Source of the DNA: a virus
Lineage: Duplodnaviria; Caudoviricetes
Strand: one strand, 5' to 3'
Length of the DNA: 57,962 nt
IMG/VR virus record: IMGVR_UViG_3300032291_002754
Location: 1 to 57,962 of that record
The notes under the pieces were generated by a model. That model worked only from the letters and a program-made list of their open reading frames with translations. It was not told the origin of the DNA and ran no database searches. Position 1 is the stretch's first letter, and every line of letters starts with the position of its first letter. The position numbers and the translations under genes were made by a program. This document shows positions 2,490-32,661 of the stretch, one piece after another.

Positions 2490-2925
2490 TCAACCTCCAT
2501 GTGTCGCGGACCGCAGCAGCACGCGCAGCCAAGTCCTTGGGCATGAGATCATCGGCATCGATCTCTTCCCAGTACTCACTGGTCAGAGGTTCCGCTTGCC
2601 GCACACGCGCTGCGCGACGGCAGACATCGGCCACAAACTCCACCGTCACACCGAACGCGCTGGCGATCTCTTCATGCGTTCGTTCCGGATAGCCGGCCGA
2701 CAGCAGGATCAATCGCTTGGTGGATGGCAGTCTGTTTTTCCGCAGCAACGCAGTGATCTTGCGTCCGACCTCCGGCCCAACCCCGATGCGGTCATAGACC
2801 ATCATGGCCGGCTCACGGTTGATCAATACGCGGCGATGAATCTCTGGCACCAAAGCCAAAGGCACTCCGGAACCAAGCCGCCACTCTTCCCCAAAACGTC
2901 GCTCTGGGCTGTTGTTCTTCCTCAT
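2236..2925 (-). CDS. Putative HTH DNA-binding protein
   Basis: THEEIASAFGVTVEFV HTH-like segment; C-terminal tail overlaps the next gene. Confidence 0.55.
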   Translation of the reverse strand: MRKNNSPERRFGEEWRLGSGVPLALVPEIHRRVLINREPAMMVYDRIGVGPEVGRKITALLRKNRLPSTKRLILLSAGYPERTHEEIASAFGVTVEFVADVCRRAARVRQAEPLTSEYWEEIDADDLMPKDLAARAAAVRDTWRLNGVVEGRLSGSAIQGPPGGTSVGGRTPDRGTRGRSRQEAGAAQSQPAEGSLSNPRRRGPRTAGDKGQGPKVHMPRRLSLRHGAC

Positions 2926-4523
2926 GCGCCAACTCCTCTCCCCTTGGTGGAAACGCCTCGTCCAGCCGGAACAGCAAATGCAGTTCGTTCACCGTGTCTG
3001 CCAGCAACAGTTCGCCGCTGCTTCTCTCGGTGGAAGTAACTGCGGACCCAGCCTCTGATGCTGGGCTGTCGCAATGCCCAATCGATCTCTCCATCTGTCA
3101 GATCCCCCATTCGCTTGCCTGCATGCCGCCCACGCAGCGGCACCTTGTACTCGCTGATGCACTTCTTCTGGACGATCTGCACGTCCTTGGCATCGATCAC
3201 ACCGCTCGCCTCGCCACGCATGGCGGCAAGACCCTCTTCGATCAACTTTGCCTTGCGGAGATCGTCCGCCGCTTGGGCCAGCAGATCGGCTGGATCGGCG
3301 GGGTCGGCGTCCTCGGCCGCGGCGGCTTGCCTTGCACGGCGGACGATCTCCGGGTCGGCGTCCCTCGCAAACATGTCTACGGCGGTAACAAGCGAGTGGC
3401 TGGCCGTCTCGTCGGTCATGTCAATGACCTTGAAGAACGGCTTGCTGCTCCTTGCAATCGCTGTCTGGCGGGCGACGACTCCAAGCCATCCAGACATGTT
3501 GGCAAATGGACAGTTGTTCAGTGTATCAGATGACAGCCTTGTAGCGCGACCGACAATCTGAAGCCAGAGCGACCGGCTCTTGGTCGGACGCGCCAGCACA
3601 ATCGTCTGGGTGGCGGGAGCGTCAAAGCCCATGGCCGCGATCTGGCAATTGAACAACACGTCGATATCGCCGCGGCGATAGGCATTGATAATCCGATTCC
3701 GCTCATCCTCCGGCTGGATGAATGCAGACCCGCAGATCGCAGCCGCGTTCATGCCGTAACTGCGAACAGCCAGGTCAGCCGCCGCAAACGCCGACTTGAC
3801 CCCGGGCAAGAACGCAATGCACTGGCCTGTGCGTTCCTTCTGGATTGTCAGGCACACTTGGTGCAGCGGCTTGCTGGCACCAATCACCATCTCCAGATCC
3901 GACGCCACGTAATCACCGCCGGCAACTGCCACGTTCGACAGGTCTAGCCCGCGGCACTTGACGATCTTCGCTCTCGGTGGAGGCGCCCATCGCTGCTGGA
4001 TGGCCTCCTGCAAGCCCATCTCATACGCTGTAGTCTGGTAAAACCTCCCAAGCCGCCGGCCGTCAGCGCGGAACGGAGTGGCCGTGAATCCAAGAATGTG
4101 CGCCCCATGCTCTTGGAACTTCTCCAGCATGGCGATCATGGCTGGGCTGTCCTGGGCATGCGCCTCGTCAACGATGACGAACCGCTTTCCCAGATGCCGC
4201 ACGTACCTCTGCGGACTGCCGGACAGGAGCGTCTGCCGGCTAGCAACGGTGATGCGTGACCCGTGGACGGCCCACTGGTCGGCCATCTCAATTTCGACAA
4301 ACTCGCCGGTAACGCGGTCCAAGGTTTTCGCCGCCTGCCAGACAAGTTCGCGCTGTGGTGCGACGATCAGAAAACTAGACCTGTCGCAGAGTTGCGCCAG
4401 TCGGCTGAATATCACCGTCTTCCCACCACCCGTGAATAGGGAGACAAGTGCCGTTTTGTGACCGCGAGCAATCGCGGCCAGAATGTCATCTACGCAGTGC
4501 TGCTGATAATCTCGCGTGTGCAT
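2922..4523 (-). CDS. SF2 (DEAH) DNA helicase with a small C-terminal GxxxGK (DUF3820-like) domain
   Basis: TRDYQ, FTGGGKT, DEAH, TAT, GFDAP, QIVGRATR; C-terminal PLRGRHAGKRMGDL...W. Confidence 0.93.
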   Translation of the reverse strand: MHTRDYQQHCVDDILAAIARGHKTALVSLFTGGGKTVIFSRLAQLCDRSSFLIVAPQRELVWQAAKTLDRVTGEFVEIEMADQWAVHGSRITVASRQTLLSGSPQRYVRHLGKRFVIVDEAHAQDSPAMIAMLEKFQEHGAHILGFTATPFRADGRRLGRFYQTTAYEMGLQEAIQQRWAPPPRAKIVKCRGLDLSNVAVAGGDYVASDLEMVIGASKPLHQVCLTIQKERTGQCIAFLPGVKSAFAAADLAVRSYGMNAAAICGSAFIQPEDERNRIINAYRRGDIDVLFNCQIAAMGFDAPATQTIVLARPTKSRSLWLQIVGRATRLSSDTLNNCPFANMSGWLGVVARQTAIARSSKPFFKVIDMTDETASHSLVTAVDMFARDADPEIVRRARQAAAAEDADPADPADLLAQAADDLRKAKLIEEGLAAMRGEASGVIDAKDVQIVQKKCISEYKVPLRGRHAGKRMGDLTDGEIDWALRQPSIRGWVRSYFHREKQRRTVAGRHGERTAFAVPAGRGVSTKGRGVGA

Positions 4524-4612
4524 GTGACCCCTCCATGCGGTTACTGCCGCCGGGGAGATATCCGTCTCTCCCCGGCGACAGGTGCGTCCGTGCAAACCAC
4601 TTCCGTCCTAGA

Positions 4613-4939
4613 TCAGAATGGGCTAGTTTCGGCCTCCGCACGCTCCCTGCTTCCAAGCAGCGTGAGATTGTTGACCCGCAGCGAGTAGGCAGTGCGCTTG
4701 ACGCCATCCTTCTCGTACTGCCGGCACTTCAGTTCACCCGAAACAGCCACAGCCTTTCCGCGAGTCAGGTACTCCACCACCTGACCGGGCTTCCAGTAGT
4801 CACAATCCATGTACAGCACCTCGTCCTTGCGGCCATTGACCGCAATGGCGAAGGCTGCGACCTCACTGTCACCGACAGACCGGACCTCGGCATCCCGCGT
4901 GAGATTGCCGGTAAACGTGCAGACATTCATGCTGGCCAT
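4613..4939 (-). CDS. ssb: Single-stranded DNA-binding protein
   Basis: GNLTRDAE, LTRGKAVAVSGEL, C-terminal PF. Confidence 0.95.
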   Translation of the reverse strand: MASMNVCTFTGNLTRDAEVRSVGDSEVAAFAIAVNGRKDEVLYMDCDYWKPGQVVEYLTRGKAVAVSGELKCRQYEKDGVKRTAYSLRVNNLTLLGSRERAEAETSPF

Positions 4940-5595
4940 CAAACACCTCCTGGGAACTGTGATGCAAACTCTTCGATCCGAACCAACACAGCGGTGGGAC
5001 AGACCCCCTCGCTGACTCTCAACCGCACCAACTCAACGGTCTTCTGAATCGCCTCTGGAGACGCGGCCTTGGAAATCGCTTCCCGCGCCTTCGCCTCAAT
5101 CTCCATTCCTCGCCCGATGACGTTTGGCTTGGACGCCTTCGACTTTGGCGGCGGCGCAGACTGCTGGCCATCGTCATCGTCCTCGGCCCAAGCACCCACC
5201 AGCGACAAGAACGTGTACTTCTTCGCGTAGGTGTAGGCACTGCCCAAGGACTGCATGTCAATCTTCGGAGTGCCTTCCTTGTCAAATCCCATGTAGATCG
5301 GACAGAGCGTGTTGACCCACTGCCCGCTTGGGGCATGGTGCAGTTCAGCCACTGCCACCCAATCGCCATTGATGCGGGTCAGCTTCGTCTGCGGGATCGG
5401 GAATCCCTCCGCAAGCAACGCCGGCCGCAATGCCTCGCAAATGTCGCTATACCGCATGTATCGGTAGCGACCGAACTTGTTGTCACCTCCACGCTCCACT
5501 GACGGGAACTGTGCCTGTGCGCGGGCAAGAGCCGCATACAGTTCCTGCGTTTCCGGTGACGATGTCAGACCGGGCAAACTGTGATCAACCGTCAT
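4939..5595 (-). CDS. ERF-family single-strand annealing protein
   Basis: LYAALARAQ...Y...QSLGSAYTYAKKY...EDDDDG. Confidence 0.92.
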   Translation of the reverse strand: MTVDHSLPGLTSSPETQELYAALARAQAQFPSVERGGDNKFGRYRYMRYSDICEALRPALLAEGFPIPQTKLTRINGDWVAVAELHHAPSGQWVNTLCPIYMGFDKEGTPKIDMQSLGSAYTYAKKYTFLSLVGAWAEDDDDGQQSAPPPKSKASKPNVIGRGMEIEAKAREAISKAASPEAIQKTVELVRLRVSEGVCPTAVLVRIEEFASQFPGGV

Positions 5596-6466
5596 TGGAC
5601 CCTCCAATCCATTTGGGAAACTCCAACTCCACCACCTCCGTATCAGCCGCCTCCGCGTAGACACCGAGACTGCGGCGCATGCGGATCACATCAAGGGTGC
5701 GGGCAATCTCTTCCCGCGCCTTCTCCAACAACTCCTCCGGCAGGGTGAACACCCTGACCGAGAATGGTGCGAACGTCTGGGCGACGATGAACGGCATGTT
5801 GAATCGCTCCCACATGCCGGATGCCACTGCGGCGTCGGAGTACCAAGCCGATTGCCACAGGTAGCCGTAGTCCACAAACGAGCGCCACAGTTGCGGCCAC
5901 TCGCTGCGCGTTGTCTTGAAATCCCACCAAAGGTCCGGCGTCATTCCATCCGCCAACGCCTTGCGCTTGTGGCCGTCCTCGTCTTGGAATCGGACAGAAC
6001 CCTGCATGTCCACTGCGCTGTCCAGCAGTTCCGATGCGACGGGATGCTGGGCTGTGTTGCAGCAGATGCGGTCGATCTTGAAGAACTCGTCAGCCGTACA
6101 CTCCCTCGCGCCGGCAGGCAGTGACGCCTTCCATTCGGTGTATGGCTTTCCACGCCTCGCACCGTTGGACAGAACATCCTCCGGCGGAACCACGTAGTTG
6201 GCAGACAGGGACTGTCCACACACCATGAGTGGAATGGCTGCGTCAACAAGTGACCCAAAGTCCGTACCGGCATTGCCAGAGAACAGGCGTTCACCGTTGT
6301 CCAGCGCACGCTGCCCCATACCGCCAAAGCGGTGGATGCTGTGTGCCGTGGAGCGGGTGATGTACCCGTCGTTGACCCTGTAGGCAGCGTCCACAGCCGC
6401 CTGGTCTAGAAGGGTCTTGACCCCTCCATTGCCGGAGATCACCCCTGGGGTATAGGATGCTGTCAT
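5585..6466 (-). CDS. RecE/ExoVIII-like PD-(D/E)XK exonuclease (DUF3799-like)
   Basis: FGSLVDA, KALADG, DFKTT, YLWQSAWY; adjacent to ERF. Confidence 0.85.
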   Translation of the reverse strand: MTASYTPGVISGNGGVKTLLDQAAVDAAYRVNDGYITRSTAHSIHRFGGMGQRALDNGERLFSGNAGTDFGSLVDAAIPLMVCGQSLSANYVVPPEDVLSNGARRGKPYTEWKASLPAGARECTADEFFKIDRICCNTAQHPVASELLDSAVDMQGSVRFQDEDGHKRKALADGMTPDLWWDFKTTRSEWPQLWRSFVDYGYLWQSAWYSDAAVASGMWERFNMPFIVAQTFAPFSVRVFTLPEELLEKAREEIARTLDVIRMRRSLGVYAEAADTEVVELEFPKWIGGSNDG

Positions 6467-6582
6467 GCGAATGCCCTCCGCAGGAGACGAAGGGCGAGGC
6501 GGGCATGGCCACAGACCATGAGGGTCAGGGCCAGACAGAAAAAACCACTAGCAGAAGCAGTGATTAGGAGGGCAAGCCACGC

Positions 6583-6609
6583 TGCCCTAGCCAATTGAGC
6601 TAGGGGTGC
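6583..6609 (-). other. Candidate attP: tRNA 5' end and D-arm fragment with 7-7-7 core symmetry
   Basis: Minus strand reads GCACCCC TA GCTC AATTGGCTA GGGC A; contains CCCTAGC-TCAATTG-GCTAGGG; 50 bp upstream of the integrase. Confidence 0.7.
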
Positions 6610-6658
6610 GTCGGACTTGACCAACCTATCCTGCCGAATTACAGGAGAGGCTGCAACC

Positions 6659-7474
6659 ATGAAAATCTCCGAATACGCGAGGCTCTACGCCAAAAGGGTG
6701 GGGGCTAGTCCGGGATACCTGGAACAACTGGTCGTCTGCACCAAACGGCTGGATTGGGACATCGCAAGTGTGACACGCGACCAAGTGGACGAATACCTCA
6801 CTCGGGCTATGTCAACGCTTGCGCCCAGCACAGTCTCTAACCACCGCCGCTATTTGAGAACCCTCCTCAGAGCTGCCAATCGCGACGGCGTGAACGAAAG
6901 TATAGCGGTCGATTTTCGGCGTGTCAAGGTGCCGCGAAAAATAGTTCGCGCCTACAGCCTGGTTGAAATTCGCAAGATCGTGACGGCCGCGCGGGCCGCT
7001 ACTCGCCAGTTCCATGGCGCACCACACTCCGTTGTGCTACCAGCGTGGATCCTCTGTGCGTACAGCACGGGCCTCCGCGCGGGCGATTTGCATTCCTTGC
7101 ATCGCGATCAAATTTCCGGTAGGCGAGTATATTGCGTCCAGCGAAAAACGCAAGCCCCCCACATCGCGGTTTTGAACGATGACGCGTTTCTCGCACTGGA
7201 GGCATTGCCCTACAAAAACCGTGTGTTTGCAGACTTGGCGAGTCGCAAGCAACTGGAGAAAGCACTGCGTTCTGTCCTGCGAAGCATCGGCATGCCGGGT
7301 TCTGTCAAGTGGCTGAGAAGGTCGGCAGCGACATACGCCGAGATCAGCGGCATGAGTGCGATGGCCACGCTCGGACATCTCACGCCTGGCCTAGCCGCAA
7401 AGCACTATGTCGATCCACTCCTTCTGACCGACGCGAAACGGCCGCTGCCATCCGCAATGCTAGCGGACGCCTAG
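6659..7474 (+). CDS. int: Tyrosine recombinase/integrase
   Basis: TGLRAGDL (R), K, KWLRRS (R), LGH, HY (Y); RBS AGGAG before ATG 6659. Confidence 0.92.
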   Translation: MKISEYARLYAKRVGASPGYLEQLVVCTKRLDWDIASVTRDQVDEYLTRAMSTLAPSTVSNHRRYLRTLLRAANRDGVNESIAVDFRRVKVPRKIVRAYSLVEIRKIVTAARAATRQFHGAPHSVVLPAWILCAYSTGLRAGDLHSLHRDQISGRRVYCVQRKTQAPHIAVLNDDAFLALEALPYKNRVFADLASRKQLEKALRSVLRSIGMPGSVKWLRRSAATYAEISGMSAMATLGHLTPGLAAKHYVDPLLLTDAKRPLPSAMLADA

Positions 7475-10400
7475 TATCGACAGCGGGTCCATGGAGTCTT
7501 TCTTCTTCTGCCGCGCCCGCTTCGCTGCCTCGCTCTGGAGAATGCGATACAGGAGGTATTGCCTCTTCTGCGTGTCGGGCAGTTTGGCCAGATCCTCCGG
7601 AGACACAAACAGATTCTGGTACGAACCAATGCCGGGGGTGTTGTCCAGCAACTGGTTGAGGGTGGTGCGAGCGGCCAGCCGCATGGTCTTCTCTTGATCC
7701 ACGTCCTGTAGTTTCACGCCAGTCAAGGAGTTCACCAAGAACTTTGCCGCACGTTCCTGCGGGGAGATTCTCTGGTCGGTGAGTTGTCGGTACGTGCCAA
7801 GGATTCGCGAGCCGCCAGGTGCGTTTACCAGTGCCTGCTCCGCTAACCGCCCCGGCATTCCGAAGGTCTGCTCCAGAACGCTGTACAGGTCTGAAAGCTG
7901 CCGGCCGCTGTAGAACTGGCGATTGGTGATGTACTCAAGCGGCCCCTTGAGTAGGGGGTTCGTCTGCCCCAGAATGTTCTGCCCAGTCTTGGTCAGCGAA
8001 TCCTTGACTGCTTCGGCAACGGTGTTGCCAATACCCGGCGTGACGAGATTGACAAACGACTCATGCGGCAAATCCAAGTTGGTCAGGAAGCGCGTAACGC
8101 CGGGGGTCTTTACGCCCAAGAAGGGGATTGACCCGGGCATTGGCAGCGCAGCCGACTGCCGCAGATATTCTGGGACAAACTGATCTTCGCTTGGCTCTGT
8201 GCCGCGGTTGATGGCCCGAACTGAAGCGGACTGCAAGCCGGCCGGTCGCTCCAGCGTCTCTTGCACAACAAGCGGCGCTATGCCTCGGGTGTACTTGTAA
8301 AACGGAAACAGGCGGGCCAGAAACTCGCGCTCAAACTCGGAGTATTTCTGGGGCTGATAGTTGACCTGGGTAAGGTCAGTAACGGACTTTGCGGCAGACG
8401 GCGCGTACCCTTTGCGAATGGCGGTCAGATATGTGCCAATGCGGTTGGCGGCGTCGGATGTTTCCGCGGCGCGGTCGCCCAACTCCACAAGAGGGTTCTC
8501 TGACAGCGACAGCCATTTCCTTGGATTGCGCGCCCAGTCTCTTGTCGATGACAACAGGCTTGACCATGTTGGCCTAGCGGCACCGGGGAAGATTTCCTTG
8601 TATGCAAGGTTCTCTGTTGCCTTCAGAAGGTTGTCGGTCACCGACGCGTTTGACAGCGCCTGACCGCCGCTGTCCGCCAAGAACTTGCGGATCTTCTCCT
8701 CGTCGCTGAGAAGCGTGTAGCCCGGTGCGTCTTTGAGTCGGGCCGGCAACCAAGAATAATCTCCGGAACGCACGCGCACTCCAGTCGCGCGATCAATGGG
8801 GTTGTATAGTCCCTGCGTGGCGGCAGCGAAACCGCCACTGTAGCGATCCCGCGTATAGCGGGCGGGCCACAGCAACGCCAGCGTTTTGAATGCGCGGGTG
8901 TAACTGTCAGCCGCTTTGAGAAGACCCTTCGTCTCCATGGGCTGGCGACTTCGCTCAATTCGCTGGGCGTAATTCTCAATGAAGTTGCGGTCGAAGGAGA
9001 CGTTTGCCAGATCGTCTGGACTTATACCCATACGCCGCGCCAGTGCAGCCGGCCCTGTCTCCGAATCAAACCCAAGGCGGCGCAGTGCGTCAGCGGCAGA
9101 GTAGGCCGTATTGCCAGGGATAGAATCCGCAGATGCGGCAATGTGCGTCTGATTCAACTGGTTAAGCAGTACATTCGCCGTTGCTTCGGCGCGCCGGCGA
9201 CCGCGTTCGTAACGCGCGAGGTCATTCAGTGAGTTGCCGAACAGAGGCAATGCGTTCTTGGCGAACTGCGGATCCGCTCGCCGGAAATGGTCGGCTGTCT
9301 GGCGGTAGAGAAGTTCCTGCGTGGCGTCATCTGCGTAGTCAAAGACCGATCCGCCGCGAGACGAAATGCCCGTTGGCATCCAGAAATCCGGCGCATTGGC
9401 AGTGATCCAATTGTCCAGCAATGGCCGAACACCGCTTCCGCCACCCGGAAGCGCATTGGGGGCCTGCCGGAGAGCGGCCTGCAACGTCGCGTCTTGCTGC
9501 ATGGCGTTCAGCACCCATGCCGGAAAGGCGCGCGCCCAGTCGCGGCGAGCGTATTCCGCGCCATCTCCAACTGGCGCCAAACGCGCACTGCGAAGGTACG
9601 GCGGACTGGCGGACGGCGGATACATGGGACCGCCGGACGCGTTGAGGATAGGCGTTTGCTCTTTGAGCAACACACTCTGGCGAGGAAAGAATCGGACGTT
9701 GTTAGGGCCTGGAGAGAGGTGCTGGAGTGGGATGCCCAGATCGCGAGAGGTTGTCAACGCCTTTCTTTGCTGGAACCGCCAGTATCGATAGAGGGCCTGC
9801 ACTGCGGGCGTCTGCATGACCGCCGCCATGTGCGCCGGGATCTGGTCCGCTTGGTCTTCAGCGAGCATGCGGAATGCATCCGCAAACTCCTGCGACTGAA
9901 ACATGTCTGGCCCGATAGACCTAGCCACGTTCACTTGCGCTCTGGCTAAAGGCCCATCGGCAGCAAGCGCGGCTACACGCTCGGCCTCGGACAATTCCCG
10001 CCCCATCCACTGTTGATTGTAGTCGGTCAGCCCCTTGAACTTGTAGTCCAAGAGCGCGCTTGTCCCTCGGACGGCCGAACCGATCAGCGGTGCGGTCTTG
10101 GCGTAATCCCCAATGGCATCGCTTGCGTCGGCTAGCGCATCACCAATACGTCTGCCAAAGAGATCGTATGCCCCAGTCTGAAAGCCGGGGATCGACACGC
10201 GGTTTGTCCGCGTCAGCGGTTGATTGAGAAGCTCTTTGGCGCGTGTTCCGGCGGCGTTCGACCAATCGATCCCCGCCTGGATCGGATTGGGCGAGAGTCG
10301 AATAAGATCGTCAGGTGTGCTGTTGCGAAGGAACCTGGCTTTCCCCATGCCCTGCTGGCGCGCCAGCAAGCCTATATCGCCAGCCAAAAGACCGGCCTTG

Positions 10401-10819
10401 CCAGCGATTCCGCCGGCAATTGTTTTGGCGCCACGTCCGATAAGGCCAACACCAATATAGGTTGTTGGGTCCAGAAGCAATTCAGCCGCCATGCCAGTGG
10501 CAAAGTTGCCCCAGTCATCCTTGCGACCGGCCATTCCCCATTTTCGCAGGAGGTCGCGGCCTGACACGCGCTCGTCGGTAAAAGCATCGCCAAGGCTTTT
10601 GCCGGCAAGCAGAGTCCTGACGATTCCGCCCGGTGTGTCAATCACCCACCCTAGACCAGACAGTCCAGAAATGCCACGCTGCGACAGAGCGCGCAGCATG
10701 GAAGTCTTCTCCTCCTCCGGCATCAGATCCGCAAGCGTGCGTTTCTTTCTGCCAAAGGGGATGACGCCAAGATCGTCACCGCCCAGCGGATCGTAGATGT
10801 CAAACAGCGGGGAAGACAC
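7460..10819 (-). CDS. Large internal virion/ejection protein (1119 aa)
   Basis: Largest ORF, at the end of the tail region; LLDPTTYIG and C-terminal FPFY...NPLLK..LE...N motifs typical of podovirus ejection proteins. Confidence 0.65.
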   Translation of the reverse strand: MSSPLFDIYDPLGGDDLGVIPFGRKKRTLADLMPEEEKTSMLRALSQRGISGLSGLGWVIDTPGGIVRTLLAGKSLGDAFTDERVSGRDLLRKWGMAGRKDDWGNFATGMAAELLLDPTTYIGVGLIGRGAKTIAGGIAGKAGLLAGDIGLLARQQGMGKARFLRNSTPDDLIRLSPNPIQAGIDWSNAAGTRAKELLNQPLTRTNRVSIPGFQTGAYDLFGRRIGDALADASDAIGDYAKTAPLIGSAVRGTSALLDYKFKGLTDYNQQWMGRELSEAERVAALAADGPLARAQVNVARSIGPDMFQSQEFADAFRMLAEDQADQIPAHMAAVMQTPAVQALYRYWRFQQRKALTTSRDLGIPLQHLSPGPNNVRFFPRQSVLLKEQTPILNASGGPMYPPSASPPYLRSARLAPVGDGAEYARRDWARAFPAWVLNAMQQDATLQAALRQAPNALPGGGSGVRPLLDNWITANAPDFWMPTGISSRGGSVFDYADDATQELLYRQTADHFRRADPQFAKNALPLFGNSLNDLARYERGRRRAEATANVLLNQLNQTHIAASADSIPGNTAYSAADALRRLGFDSETGPAALARRMGISPDDLANVSFDRNFIENYAQRIERSRQPMETKGLLKAADSYTRAFKTLALLWPARYTRDRYSGGFAAATQGLYNPIDRATGVRVRSGDYSWLPARLKDAPGYTLLSDEEKIRKFLADSGGQALSNASVTDNLLKATENLAYKEIFPGAARPTWSSLLSSTRDWARNPRKWLSLSENPLVELGDRAAETSDAANRIGTYLTAIRKGYAPSAAKSVTDLTQVNYQPQKYSEFEREFLARLFPFYKYTRGIAPLVVQETLERPAGLQSASVRAINRGTEPSEDQFVPEYLRQSAALPMPGSIPFLGVKTPGVTRFLTNLDLPHESFVNLVTPGIGNTVAEAVKDSLTKTGQNILGQTNPLLKGPLEYITNRQFYSGRQLSDLYSVLEQTFGMPGRLAEQALVNAPGGSRILGTYRQLTDQRISPQERAAKFLVNSLTGVKLQDVDQEKTMRLAARTTLNQLLDNTPGIGSYQNLFVSPEDLAKLPDTQKRQYLLYRILQSEAAKRARQKKKDSMDPLSILGVR

Positions 10820-10821
10820 GT

Positions 10822-12288
10822 CTACCTCCCGCGGCGTTGACCCGGCACAAGTGGACGCGTTGCCGATGAAGCCGGGGTGGGAGTGGGAGTCGCAGACCCG
10901 GGCGCAGACCCAGCGGACCCAGGCGCTGGGCTAGGGGGCGCGATTGGCCCTCTCGCACCAATCCACCTCCTGCCATCGGCGGCTTTCCTTGCCGCCTGCC
11001 GTGCTTCTGCTTCCCCCATTCCGTAGTTTCTGATTAGGTAGTCCACTAGTCGGTTCTCGTCTTCGTCGCTGAAACCACCAGTTGTGGTATCCATCGATTC
11101 CGCAAGACGATCAACTTCTGCCTCTGCCTCCGGACTCTGCCAATTACCGCTCTGGAGATCCTCTTTGCCGGCCGCAACCGGGTCAGCGCGGCGCGCCTGC
11201 CGGAGCTTCTCGCGCGCCGCCTCTCGCGCAAGTGGGTCCATGCCGGCGAGAGTTTCGGCGGTCATCAGACGCGCTGCATTTTGCATGTTTTGCGCATCCA
11301 CCGATGCGACCAACTGACCACCTGGCAGCATGTACTGCAATGATCTCTTGCGCTCTTCTGGATCCAACTCTTCCAGTGCGTTGACAATAGCCTTTGATCC
11401 GCCACGTCCTCCCGTTGGCTGACCACCAGCAAGCATCGCCTGCTTACGCCACAGATCGCGACGAGCGTTTGCCTCGTCCGCCCTTGCGGCTCGCGCACCC
11501 AAGCGCAATGAGTTCATTCCATCTTCAGTCTGGGCCAACTCCAAAGCCTTTGCGGCCGGAATGCCAGACTGTTCCGCCAGTCGAAGGGCTGAACGCTGGC
11601 GGTCTTGAAGAGCGTATCGCGCCTTCGCTTCCTCGCCGGGAACCATTACTGTCACCGGGCCAGTCGGGCCTTTCACACCTCGGGAAGTCCAGCCCTTTTC
11701 CAACAAATCGATCCTGACACCGGGGCGGCCGGGTGCGCCGATTATGCTCGGATCCTCGCTGTACTCCACTCCGTACCCAACGCTACCGTCTGCGTTGTAT
11801 CGCGGCACCATACCGCGGAGTCGCATGTCCTCGTCGCGCTGCGATGGAAGATATTCTCCTGGGGTATCGGGGTTCTCCTCGCGCACTTCGTAATCCCGCT
11901 GGTCATCTTCATCCACAATAGGTTCGCCCTGCGGAGTCGGCAGTCCATTCGGGAGACGCGGGCCAGGAGCGCGGCGATAGTCTCCGATGCGCGGGTCAGG
12001 CGTGGACTTGAATTCAGCGGGAGCGCGACCCGGGGCGGGAGCATCCGCGGGCGGACCTTGGAAGTAGAAACTGGCAATCCGCACCGCTTCTGGGTACGGG
12101 ATGCCTTGCGCAACGTAGTTCTGAACCATCGCTTCCCGCATTGCTTCCGGGTTGCCGCCGCTGGTGACGCCAGCCATTCGGGCTTCGGTGGCCATATTGC
12201 CTGCGCGACGATTGGGGCTGTACGGCCCAACGTCCGGATCGCGGCCAACTGGATTGGAGAGCGGGTCAAATCCCGTGCGAACGTCCAT
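10822..12288 (-). CDS. Putative internal virion protein
   Basis: 488 aa, Ala/Arg/Pro-rich, in the ejection-protein block. Confidence 0.55.
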   Translation of the reverse strand: MDVRTGFDPLSNPVGRDPDVGPYSPNRRAGNMATEARMAGVTSGGNPEAMREAMVQNYVAQGIPYPEAVRIASFYFQGPPADAPAPGRAPAEFKSTPDPRIGDYRRAPGPRLPNGLPTPQGEPIVDEDDQRDYEVREENPDTPGEYLPSQRDEDMRLRGMVPRYNADGSVGYGVEYSEDPSIIGAPGRPGVRIDLLEKGWTSRGVKGPTGPVTVMVPGEEAKARYALQDRQRSALRLAEQSGIPAAKALELAQTEDGMNSLRLGARAARADEANARRDLWRKQAMLAGGQPTGGRGGSKAIVNALEELDPEERKRSLQYMLPGGQLVASVDAQNMQNAARLMTAETLAGMDPLAREAAREKLRQARRADPVAAGKEDLQSGNWQSPEAEAEVDRLAESMDTTTGGFSDEDENRLVDYLIRNYGMGEAEARQAARKAADGRRWIGARGPIAPPSPAPGSAGSAPGSATPTPTPASSATRPLVPGQRRGR

Positions 12289-12290
12289 GA

Positions 12291-13310
12291 CTACCTCATA
12301 TTGCTGTATCGAAGGCCCATCCGCTTTTCGCGTTCACGCTCAACGCTGCCCTCTGGGTAGAAACTATCCATCTTCTTACCGGTAACAGGATCGCGGATAT
12401 CAATCACTTGAGTTCGCAGCCCATCGATGTCCGACGCTGACAGCCGGCCGCTTGAAGGCTGCGGGCGCATGTTGGTGTATCTCTTGCCTTCCCGAAGTTC
12501 CCGCTCTCTCTCAACGCTTCCTTCGGGATAGAAACTCTCCAGCCGTTCGCCGGTAACGGGATCGCGGATGTCCACTACTTGGGATCGCAGTGCTTCGATT
12601 TCTTCTGGAGTCAGGCGATCCTCTACCGATTCAATCTGGGTTTCCGGACCAGGGCGCGTCTCTGCCACAAGGTCGGCAGTTGCAAACGGGTCTTCGGTCA
12701 TCCCGTATCCCGGGATTGCGATCTCGGGCTGATCAACAACAACCATGTCAGCGAAGTCTTCTGCGCTGGGGAATCGGCTGACGGGATCCATGCTGGCTTC
12801 CGACTGCTGCGGTGCGCGTTGAGATGCTATAGCCGCTGCAACAGCCGCAGCGCCGCCGCCTGCGATACCAGCGTCGTTCAGAAGCGCGCCGCGCTCGGCG
12901 TCTCGGGCCATCTGCGCATAACGCTCGTCCCGCATATTCCGTAAATTTTCTTGGGCAACGGAGGCCAAGGACCGCTGGCGCTGTTCTGGCGTCAGTCGGT
13001 TCAGTCGGCTTTCGGTCAGCGCACGCGAACGCTCGTTGCGGAGAATCATATCCATGAGCGGCTCTTGGGCGGCGGGCGCTTCATATCCTGCGGCGATACG
13101 CTCAAGCGGCGTAAACGGCCCACCGCTCGCCGCTTCGTCCAGCCAAGACTGCGGGGCCGCGGTGAGGGCGCGCATGCCTTGGATGTTGTCCGCCTGCGAC
13201 ATTGCCTCGGCTTCCAACTGCGCCAAGTAACGCGCCGCATCCGGGTCCATACCCCGAACGCGGGCGAGCTTCTTCGCCATGTCCGCAATCATGTCAAAAT
13301 ACGTGGCCAT
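12291..13310 (-). CDS. Putative virion protein with a duplicated C-terminal ~45 aa module
   Basis: Two copies of LRxQVxDIRDPVTG...SFYPEGSVERERE...RYxNMR. Confidence 0.7.
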   Translation of the reverse strand: MATYFDMIADMAKKLARVRGMDPDAARYLAQLEAEAMSQADNIQGMRALTAAPQSWLDEAASGGPFTPLERIAAGYEAPAAQEPLMDMILRNERSRALTESRLNRLTPEQRQRSLASVAQENLRNMRDERYAQMARDAERGALLNDAGIAGGGAAAVAAAIASQRAPQQSEASMDPVSRFPSAEDFADMVVVDQPEIAIPGYGMTEDPFATADLVAETRPGPETQIESVEDRLTPEEIEALRSQVVDIRDPVTGERLESFYPEGSVERERELREGKRYTNMRPQPSSGRLSASDIDGLRTQVIDIRDPVTGKKMDSFYPEGSVEREREKRMGLRYSNMR

Positions 13311-32079: not shown

Positions 32080-32661
32080 TCACGCGACCGGGGTGCTGAC
32101 AAACGCCAGCACGTTCGCGCCAGTCGTTGCGCCGGCCGATGCCGCGTAAGCGATCACGCCGATGCCAGTGTTGCCCGGGGAGGTGGTCGCCGCCCCAACG
32201 GTCGAAGGAGTCACTCGGCCCGAGGTGGTCGCCCCGGTCGTGGCGCCTGCCACGGCAGCGAGACGATCACCAACCGCAACCGCCGTTCCCGAAAGAGCGA
32301 CGGCCACTTCAGTTGGGCCGTTGACGGTCACCCAGAAAACATCCTTGTCGGCAACCCCGCCGGCAAGATGCTCGTCCACCACACCAACAAGTTCGTTGTT
32401 GGCAGAGGTGTTGTATCCGGCGACGGCAGAGAAGCTGCCGCTCACAAACGACACCAGTCGCTTGGGAAGAAGAGTGGTGCCGGACGAGTTGCGAACCGCG
32501 ACACAGAGTTTGACGCGGTTCGACCGGATGGTGCCGGTCTTGGGGTCAACGTCTGGGAACTGCTTGATGGCGCCGATCCAGTTGGCTCCGATTTCCACAC
32601 CACCCTCGCCAAGGCCGAGGGTCTGGCCGAGACTGAACGGCGGGTCAACGAAATAAGACAT
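32080..32661 (-). CDS. Capsid decoration/cement protein
   Basis: Follows the major capsid gene; small-residue rich; FWVTVNGP motif. Confidence 0.7.
   Translation of the reverse strand: MSYFVDPPFSLGQTLGLGEGGVEIGANWIGAIKQFPDVDPKTGTIRSNRVKLCVAVRNSSGTTLLPKRLVSFVSGSFSAVAGYNTSANNELVGVVDEHLAGGVADKDVFWVTVNGPTEVAVALSGTAVAVGDRLAAVAGATTGATTSGRVTPSTVGAATTSPGNTGIGVIAYAASAGATTGANVLAFVSTPVA

Follow-up and report, generated by a model that had tools for sequence, protein, structure and literature searches.

Between the integrase gene of this phage (plus strand) and the divergent PDDEXK gene (minus strand) lies a gap of 192 bp that holds a stretch resembling the start of a bacterial tRNA, and the question it raises is whether the phage recombines at this stretch and so hands a 5' end to a tRNA gene of its host. 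The virus record is complete (57,962 bp, with direct terminal repeats) and was analysed at its full length, which we call the window. On the minus strand, positions 6609 to 6583 read GCACCCC-TA-GCTC-AATTGGCTA-GGGC-A, exactly the string that a first-pass annotation of this DNA had given as a candidate attP. The 27-mer occurs once in the window, and none of 100 shuffles gave a match with up to 3 mismatches. The annotation had described an acceptor strand and a D-arm followed by neither anticodon nor T arm, and this description holds: ARAGORN called no tRNA gene anywhere in the window, Rfam had no match in it, and no likeness to tRNA was seen beyond the 27th base of the fragment. The distance from tRNA position 1 to the integrase ATG at 6659 is 49 nt; the closeness of site and gene had been correctly noted, and the figure of 50 bp needs a small correction.

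The perfect symmetry that had been claimed for the site is also there, as the exact inverted repeat CCCTAGC/TCAATTG/GCTAGGG at 6585-6605 (Table 1). A 7-7-7 palindrome of this kind could by itself arise by chance: the window contains 7 of them, against 4.3 +/- 1.8 in 30 first-order Markov simulations. Further inverted repeats, with 13-nt arms (at least 11/13 complementary) and a 7-nt spacer, are found at 32491 and 40051. Two direct repeats, GGACTTGACC (6613-6622) and GGTCTTGACC (6413-6422), lie 200 bp apart, the first of them abutting the candidate attP and including TTGACC, a possible -35 element of the integrase gene. Three large ORFs (1119, 488 and 339 aa; 7460-13310, minus strand) converge on the integrase gene and have no Pfam or PHROG match.

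Table 1. Features at and around the candidate attachment site, in window coordinates.
Feature	Position	Strand	Basis or remark
tRNA-Arg(ACG) 5' fragment, candidate attP	6583..6609	-	acceptor 5' strand, U8 A9, D-arm, position 26; 25/27 bases as in the common Planctomycetota gene
Block identical to host tRNA positions 1-19	6591..6609	-	19-mer matched in at least 120 genome contigs
Left core arm CCCTAGC, tRNA positions 5-11, putative integrase binding site	6599..6605	-	perfect inverted repeat with 6585-6591; co-varies with right arm across relatives
TCAATTG, tRNA positions 12-18, putative 7-bp strand-exchange overlap	6592..6598	-	between the arms; 126 related loci tRNA-like through G18
Right core arm GCTAGGG, phage-specific	6585..6591	-	host tRNA reads GATAGAG; arm complementarity 7/7 against 5/7 in the host
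Extended imperfect palindrome, 13-nt arms, 11/13 complementary	6579..6611	.	one predicted hairpin if transcribed
Terminator-like hairpin with U6, putative function	6537..6565	-	RNA fold of 6625-6500; 18 nt past the tRNA-like stretch; missed by a simple terminator scan
Tyrosine integrase, 271 aa, core-binding and catalytic domains	6659..7474	+	PHROG_1 at 1.7e-21
PDDEXK / exonuclease VIII-like, first gene on the far side of attP	5585..6466	-	Pfam/PHROG matches
Erf, next after the PDDEXK gene	4939-5664	-	recombination module
Helicase, recombination module	2922-4595	-	Pfam/PHROG matches

The identity of the fragment was explored in a genome collection holding one genome per species (185,579 species). 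The full 27-mer, which is the sequence expected at the attL of this phage, had no exact match in genome contigs and none in metagenome contigs. Its first 19 bases matched in at least 120 genome contigs and, among the matches listed, always begin with the first base of a tRNA gene, whether complete or truncated. By pattern count, the 121 listed occurrences (120 loci) comprise 102 tRNA-Arg(ACG)-like genes (in one of them, L079, the likeness ends near position 45), 10 tRNA-Lys(CTT) genes, 4 other full Arg-type genes, 4 copies truncated in the D-arm and 1 contig end. Thus tRNAs that begin with this sequence do exist, and the resemblance to bacterial tRNA-Arg 5' ends that the annotation had pointed out amounts to identity at 19 of 19 bases. 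Where the usual Planctomycetota gene continues ...TTGG-ATAGAGCA, the phage has ...TTGG-CTAGGGCA, so that 25 of the 27 bases agree, and both mismatches raise the symmetry of the right arm from 5/7 to 7/7. A 31-nt Logan contig (run X4) covers 6583-6611 with 2 differences, the number expected from the host tRNA, and is known by its position and difference count alone. Logan contigs of 4 runs from one study, among which may be the run that yielded the window, showed neither joints nor loose ends at the site; these contigs drop rare variants, and the result therefore has no bearing on integration.

The arrangement is shared by a large family. About 40 clusters related to the integrase (44-54% identity, about 272 aa) were found in a large protein collection; a scan of IMG/VR with the single protein gave no match, and the 21-mer palindrome had 0 matches there. 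Profile scans based on alignments yielded 136 family loci, 67 from metagenomes and 69 from IMG/VR, in two sets that overlap; without duplicates, they hold 92 distinct integrases among the 118 complete ones and 49 distinct 25-nt cores. Of the 136 loci, 126 have tRNA positions 1-18 ahead of the integrase (42-54% identity) and on the other strand, at a distance of 45-106 nt from the start codon. The expectation that homologous integrases would map to the same site is thereby borne out in position and orientation, and a case of special interest, in which the 5' end of an intact tRNA-Val(CAC) lies 49 bp from a family integrase (L138), is discussed below. The 10 loci without a fragment have too little flank (2), have a partial integrase at a contig edge (2) or are distant homologues of 29-35% identity (6). 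Since the 19-mer is the exact start of tRNAs in at least 120 loci and the arrangement recurs in 126 of 136 integrase loci, the likeness of the fragment to tRNA is, on these comparisons, not due to chance.

The fragments fall into seven 18-mer types (Arg-like, Val-like and others): GCACCCCTAGCTCAATTG in 45 loci and in the window, GGGCAGCTAGCTCAGTTG in 35, GGGCAACTAGCTCAGTTG in 25, GCACCCCTAGCTCAACTG in 15, GCGCCCGTAGCTCAATTG in 3, GCGCCCGTGGCTCAATTG in 2 and GGACAGCTAGCTCAGTTG in 1. All of them resemble a tRNA up to and including G18 and part from it at position 19 (G, T or A). In a quick maximum-likelihood tree the window integrase forms a long branch that is sister (99% SH-aLRT) to 23 integrases with Val-type fragments, while itself having a fragment of the Arg type. 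Across the integrase tree the Arg label requires at least 3 changes on well-supported branches, and tRNA type is clustered, with the sublocation unchanged throughout. One IMG/VR contig of 117,778 bp carries two family integrases about 57 kb apart (L243 and L258), with Val-type and GCGCCCGTGG-type fragments, and could represent two phages in tandem or a chimeric assembly.

Where within the fragment the strands would be exchanged was addressed through the covariation of the arms. The outer triplet of the right arm (positions 22-24) is complementary to acceptor positions 5-7 at 99 of 147 positions. Random reassignment of right arms to cores gives 72.4 +/- 5.1, and 0 of 10000 such shuffles reach 99; these shuffles ignore relatedness, which makes the covariation support rather than proof. 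A true D-stem (GAG) would score 67 in the same count. A tRNA sequence decaying after G18 would tend to keep GAG at positions 22-24; the triplets observed follow acceptor positions 5-7 instead: of 18 distinct cores with CCC, 8 have GGG, both cores with CCG have CGG, and those with AGC have GCT or GCx. The fit is poorer for cores of the AAC type, which mostly have GCx and not the fully complementary GTT. This last observation is one of those that speak for another placement, in which the attP does supply the 5' end of the tRNA while the strands are exchanged within the acceptor stem or between positions 8 and 11, the symmetry around TCAATTG being incidental or serving another protein. The bounds set by comparison would accommodate it, being as wide as positions 1-18/19, or -2 to +22 in a host island described below (G002), and, as noted, the palindrome is not rare by chance. 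We nevertheless hold this placement to be unlikely: in all 126 loci tRNA identity stops at G18, just where an overlap at positions 12-18 would end, the right arm co-varies with positions 5-7, and both differences between window and tRNA act to perfect the symmetry. [quoted passage not shown] Of the earlier proposal, that crossover occurs in the D-loop and that the phage restores the 5' end, the second part is supported by the comparison of the family; the first goes further than those bounds and derives from the symmetry.

Integrated forms are rare in the material at hand. The integrated configuration was seen in 1 of the 136 family loci, L138, where an intact tRNA-Val(CAC) stands in place of the fragment that its siblings carry, with its 5' end 49 nt from the integrase start. 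The L138 integrase nests among the Val-type phage integrases, and its integrase-side spacer can be aligned with those of sibling phages, which have just the matching tRNA fragment and not the whole gene; the sequences part after position 19. This configuration is as expected for an integrated form, to judge from the alignment. Past the 3' end of the tRNA lies a second, classical P4-like element with an integrase, DUF3987 and HTH_17. The presence of a classical element at the tRNA 3' end argues for a chromosomal context of L138, and with a family prophage on the 5' side both ends of one tRNA-Val(CAC) gene would be occupied (L138:2259-5951). Elsewhere the family was hardly met: tblastn (E <= 1e-3) revealed no family integrase beside the listed 120 tRNA loci, and 401 sampled Planctomycetota genomes gave weak integrase matches in just 2 (E 1.6e-8 and 7.8e-7). 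It seems that integration is rare, or that the hosts are poorly sampled.

Copies of tRNA-Arg cut between positions 19 and 22 were present at 4 of the 120 listed host loci, and they offer a view of the same geometry in host chromosomes. In one MAG (G004; L131 and L126), one contig consists of host upstream sequence, positions 1-19 and AT-rich foreign DNA, ending 430 bp later, and a second has the upstream 50 nt, with two mismatches, followed by an intact tRNA-Arg; the pair has the look of an occupied and an empty allele. In G002, 5953 bp separate a truncated copy from an intact tRNA-Arg of the same orientation. The island between them, just upstream of the intact gene, is flanked by a direct repeat of 25 bp (2 nt of upstream sequence plus positions 1-22), which would bound the crossover to -2 to +22. 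Type III Cmr/RAMP genes and a gene of DUF7689 are found on this island (L135:2791-8768, on G002:C31), which has no integrase and may be a defence cassette mobilised in trans. Read as assembled, these loci show that insertion upstream of tRNA-Arg with duplication of its 5' end happens in Planctomycetota. Because the islands lack the family integrase, the truncated host fragments speak to the geometry and not to this enzyme: the 5 genomes with truncated fragments had no family integrase beyond weak matches elsewhere in G004, the DNA downstream of the fragments (L055, L065, L078, L079) had no similarity to phage loci, and the upstream side of L065 had one weak tblastx match to them. The neighbouring genes code for sulfatase, LRR, Cmr and similar proteins. 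Separately, two loci of G406 (L134 and L130) have upstream sequences about 90% similar, and one copy is tRNA-like to about position 45, with two mismatches, before it diverges, a breakpoint that differs from the D-arm cases.

Two more distant arrangements were left out of the integrated forms. In L273 (31-35% identity) the integrase lies about 100 nt from an intact tRNA-Arg(ACG); in L270 (30% identity) an intact tRNA-Gly(CCC) is 155 nt away. Either could be an integrated form or a case of a phage-borne tRNA gene, and as the tRNA of L273 is followed by a small ORF, by eye an HTH regulator, neither was counted. In both (L273:9512-10524 and L270:5770-6816), a distant integrase is divergent to an intact tRNA gene, and these arrangements may hint at the origin of the fragment-integrase layout. 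A reading that we regard as extremely improbable is that the fragment is a functionless scar, left by imprecise excision from a tRNA locus. The failure of the 27-mer to find a lysogen of this phage in genome and metagenome contigs would suit a scar. Yet the fragment recurs in 126 of 136 loci, bounded each time at G18 and accompanied by a phage arm that co-varies with it, and a scar would need to have formed repeatedly or been retained in all of these.

The integrase protein has the make-up of a two-domain tyrosine recombinase. Its start at ATG 6659, preceded by GGAGAGG, is backed by an alignment of 40 sequences (A1), and R140, K163, R220, H240 and Y250 are invariant across these 40 relatives; the first catalytic His appears to be replaced by Lys, the alignment consensus at this place being KFLRR. 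The Pfam PF00589 score of the window protein is 24.7 bits, below the cut-off of 27.1, and many relatives have a precomputed match to the same model. NCBIfam Xer models gave 17-27 bits against cut-offs of 220-335, a marginal similarity, and profile searches matched the PDB at 1e-4. The AlphaFold model built from A1 (pLDDT 92.8) has the core-binding and catalytic fold of the tyrosine recombinase superfamily, with a Foldseek probability of 1.00 to lambda Int(75-356), Tn1549 Int, XerA, Cre and IntI, the first three being its best fold matches. Since the model matches residues 75-356 of lambda Int, Tn1549 Int, XerA, IntI and Cre, the integrase is, as modelled, a protein of core-binding and catalytic domains without an arm-binding domain. 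Cultured relatives of the phage were not found at 1e-5 among 50,697 phage records, by megablast of window positions 1-25000 or by tblastn of the integrase, for which E <= 1 gave 25 weak partial matches only.

A protein so built, like Cre and Xer, invites the alternative that the phage is extrachromosomal and that the site serves it for resolution, in the manner of lox or dif, or as an operator within the divergent promoter region, the likeness to tRNA being an inherited relic. Nearly all family loci are free, phage-like contigs, lysogens being almost absent from genome collections; the site also abuts TTGACC on the integrase strand, and GTCAAG is kept within 25 nt upstream of the fragment in 31 of the 60 short-spacer loci. 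A relic, though, would not keep positions 1-18 of a tRNA unaltered in a family whose integrases are down to 42-54% identity and have changed from one tRNA type to another, and L138 places a family member beside an intact tRNA. We judge this alternative very unlikely as a replacement for integration, with which such a role would be compatible, the two not being mutually exclusive.

Which tRNA is targeted, and in which host, is answered at the level of the phylum. Phyla, as we assigned them from genus names, were Planctomycetota for 105 of the 120 listed loci, Actinomycetota for 9 (all of them Lys genes), Verrucomicrobiota for 4 and Acidobacteriota for 1. The Verrucomicrobiota gene has a 26-nt start in common with that of Planctomycetota. 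Many relatives with Arg-type fragments still read GATAGAG, and even TCGGTC, which belongs to an anticodon stem of the Planctomycetota type. The genomes of Nocardioidaceae have a G+C content above 56-61%. The Actinomycetota tRNA-Lys(CTT) begins with the same 19 bases as the phage fragment, and a target in this gene (Nocardioidaceae, Arthrobacter), with a host outside the Planctomycetota, has to be weighed: it accounts for 10 of the 121 listed occurrences of the 19-mer, in 9 Actinomycetota loci, and these have a C after the 19-mer, as does the phage. The Lys right arm, GCAGAGC, fits the symmetric arm at 3/7 against 5/7 for Arg, the relatives just mentioned keep sequence of the Arg gene, and the G+C content of the window, 56-61%, is lower than that of Nocardioidaceae. 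In favour of such a host, the Val-type GGGCARCTAGCTCAGTTGG of the nearest integrase clade was found in 0 of 301 Planctomycetota genomes; against it, the sequence was found in 0 of 251 Actinomycetota genomes as well (and in 0 of 201 Verrucomicrobiota genomes). One match with 1 mismatch came from 5 hand-picked genomes. For this phage, we find a Lys target in Actinomycetota quite unlikely; given that the 19-mer is mainly a Planctomycetota sequence, that relatives keep GATAGAG and TCGGTC, that the Arg right arm fits better and that the G+C content agrees, Planctomycetota is the most likely host phylum. The suggestion that the fragment identifies the host thus yields a lead to a phylum and goes no finer, the 19 bases being shared with Actinomycetota tRNA-Lys(CTT).

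Based on the identity to tRNA, the conservation of the fragment beside the integrase across the family, the covariation of the arms and the junctions of the same geometry in other genomes, we consider it probable that 6583-6609 contains the attP core of the adjacent 271-aa integrase, and that the phage supplies the 5' end of tRNA-Arg(ACG). Two integrase subunits would bind the inverted arms CCCTAGC and GCTAGGG and exchange strands within the 7-bp TCAATTG; the host site would offer the same left arm and overlap, with GATAGAG as an imperfect right arm. The prophage would be placed upstream of the tRNA gene. Its integrase-side half of attP, which brings phage positions 1 to about 18, would be joined to the remainder of the host tRNA, which would stay intact and unchanged. 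The host promoter and the host's own positions 1-18 would be left at the other end of the prophage as a truncated fragment. The activity of this phage, the cleavage positions, the source of transcription of the rebuilt tRNA and a host in the Planctomycetota are presumed in this scheme from the comparisons above.

Since the prophage would end up upstream of the tRNA, it must replace the tRNA promoter. A search of 6300-6800 of the window for sigma-70-like promoters gave 0 sites. A TTGnnn-N15-18-TAnnnT motif pointing at the fragment was found in 15 of 67 long-spacer relatives and in 0 of the 60 short-spacer loci, the window included. The hairpin and U6 at 6537-6565 could, as a conjecture, stop read-through from the displaced host tRNA promoter. 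tRNA-Arg(ACG) is the inosine-reading decoder of CGU, CGC and CGA and is often encoded by a single copy. One may speculate, and we do so only tentatively as this is rather doubtful, that the family has fixed on the D-arm as the third symmetric site of the cloverleaf, one not filled in the classical scheme, and that the swap of promoters at integration gives it an addiction-like hold: the prophage would take over transcription of tRNA-Arg(ACG), and the host promoter would point into the prophage and be stopped at 6537-6565. If this were true, translation in the lysogen would depend on a promoter supplied by the phage.

Integrases of tRNA genes are said to have been described by Williams, in Nucleic Acids Res in 2002, as using three sublocations, the anticodon loop, the T-loop and the 3' end. 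A later preprint restates these three classical sublocations, all of which restore the 3' part of the tRNA (bioRxiv 10.1101/2020.11.02.365908). The present system resembles the classical ones in that the integrase gene adjoins an attP copying part of a host tRNA so that the gene is rebuilt, in the symmetry that flanks the crossover site, and in a tRNA identity that changes within the family while the sublocation stays fixed. Unlike them, the phage copies the 5' end (positions 1-19) and not the 3' part, the fragment having no att identity over anticodon loop, T-loop or 3' end; the putative crossover is in the D-arm, with the prophage upstream of the tRNA and a promoter to be replaced, and the integrase appears to lack the arm-binding domain.

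The geometry has precedents. According to the same preprint, Klebsiella islands integrate upstream of arg2 at a site made of the acceptor 5' half, D-stem and D-loop, the D-loop being called a novel sublocation (bioRxiv 10.1101/2020.11.02.365908). Integration upstream of a tRNA-Arg gene would be common to those islands and our phage, and so would the use of the D-arm: phage and host share positions 1-19, and both L138 and the G002 island have the element on the upstream side of the tRNA. The Klebsiella elements are islands of Gammaproteobacteria whose integrases, by their authors' description, have the usual N- and C-terminal domains, whereas here the trait is common to a whole family of phage integrases. 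A second precedent is found in the HTVC019P-type pelagiphages, several of whose attP cores are reported to overlap the 5' end of a host tRNA so that the phage gives a partial 5' end, with attL and attR confirmed by PCR and sequencing (bioRxiv 10.1101/410191). The likeness to our candidate lies in this overlap and in the partial 5' end supplied. The pelagiphages differ in being T7-like podoviruses of SAR11, in having cores of 11-46 bp at varied places in the tRNA, and in that rebuilding leaves some of their tRNAs altered or broken. No Pelagibacter phage was among the 25 phage records that matched the integrase at E <= 1, in a collection that may lack phages of the HTVC019P type. Cre/loxP, XerA/dif and XerH/difH share with our system the two-domain fold and a short site with inverted arms around a 6-8 bp spacer and no evident arm-type sites; in contrast, they resolve or circularise replicons, their sites are not copies of tRNA, and the sequence similarity is marginal.

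The view that the integration geometry is uncommon therefore stands, with the qualification that it is already in print for Klebsiella islands and pelagiphages. In the accessible literature on D-loop sublocations of integrases and on prophages of Planctomycetes, we found no description of this integrase family. The geometry, then, is known and rare; the integrase family, its size and its strict use of the D-arm sublocation are new, and what we describe is a new family of a known, uncommon kind.

In conclusion, the fragment provides a sequence-based lead to the host, most likely in the Planctomycetota, for uncultured phages of about 57-62 kb without a cultured relative. A compact recombinase with a symmetric site of about 21 bp could also be put to use for integration in a phylum where genetic tools are scarce. 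Integration on this side of a tRNA raises a question that 3'-end integration avoids, namely where transcription of the rebuilt tRNA comes from. The rule that integrase families keep their sublocation while changing the tRNA would extend to the D-arm, and our results suggest that use of the D-arm with an element-supplied 5' end is the fixed habit of a large phage integrase family (92 distinct proteins), rather than an oddity of a few islands.
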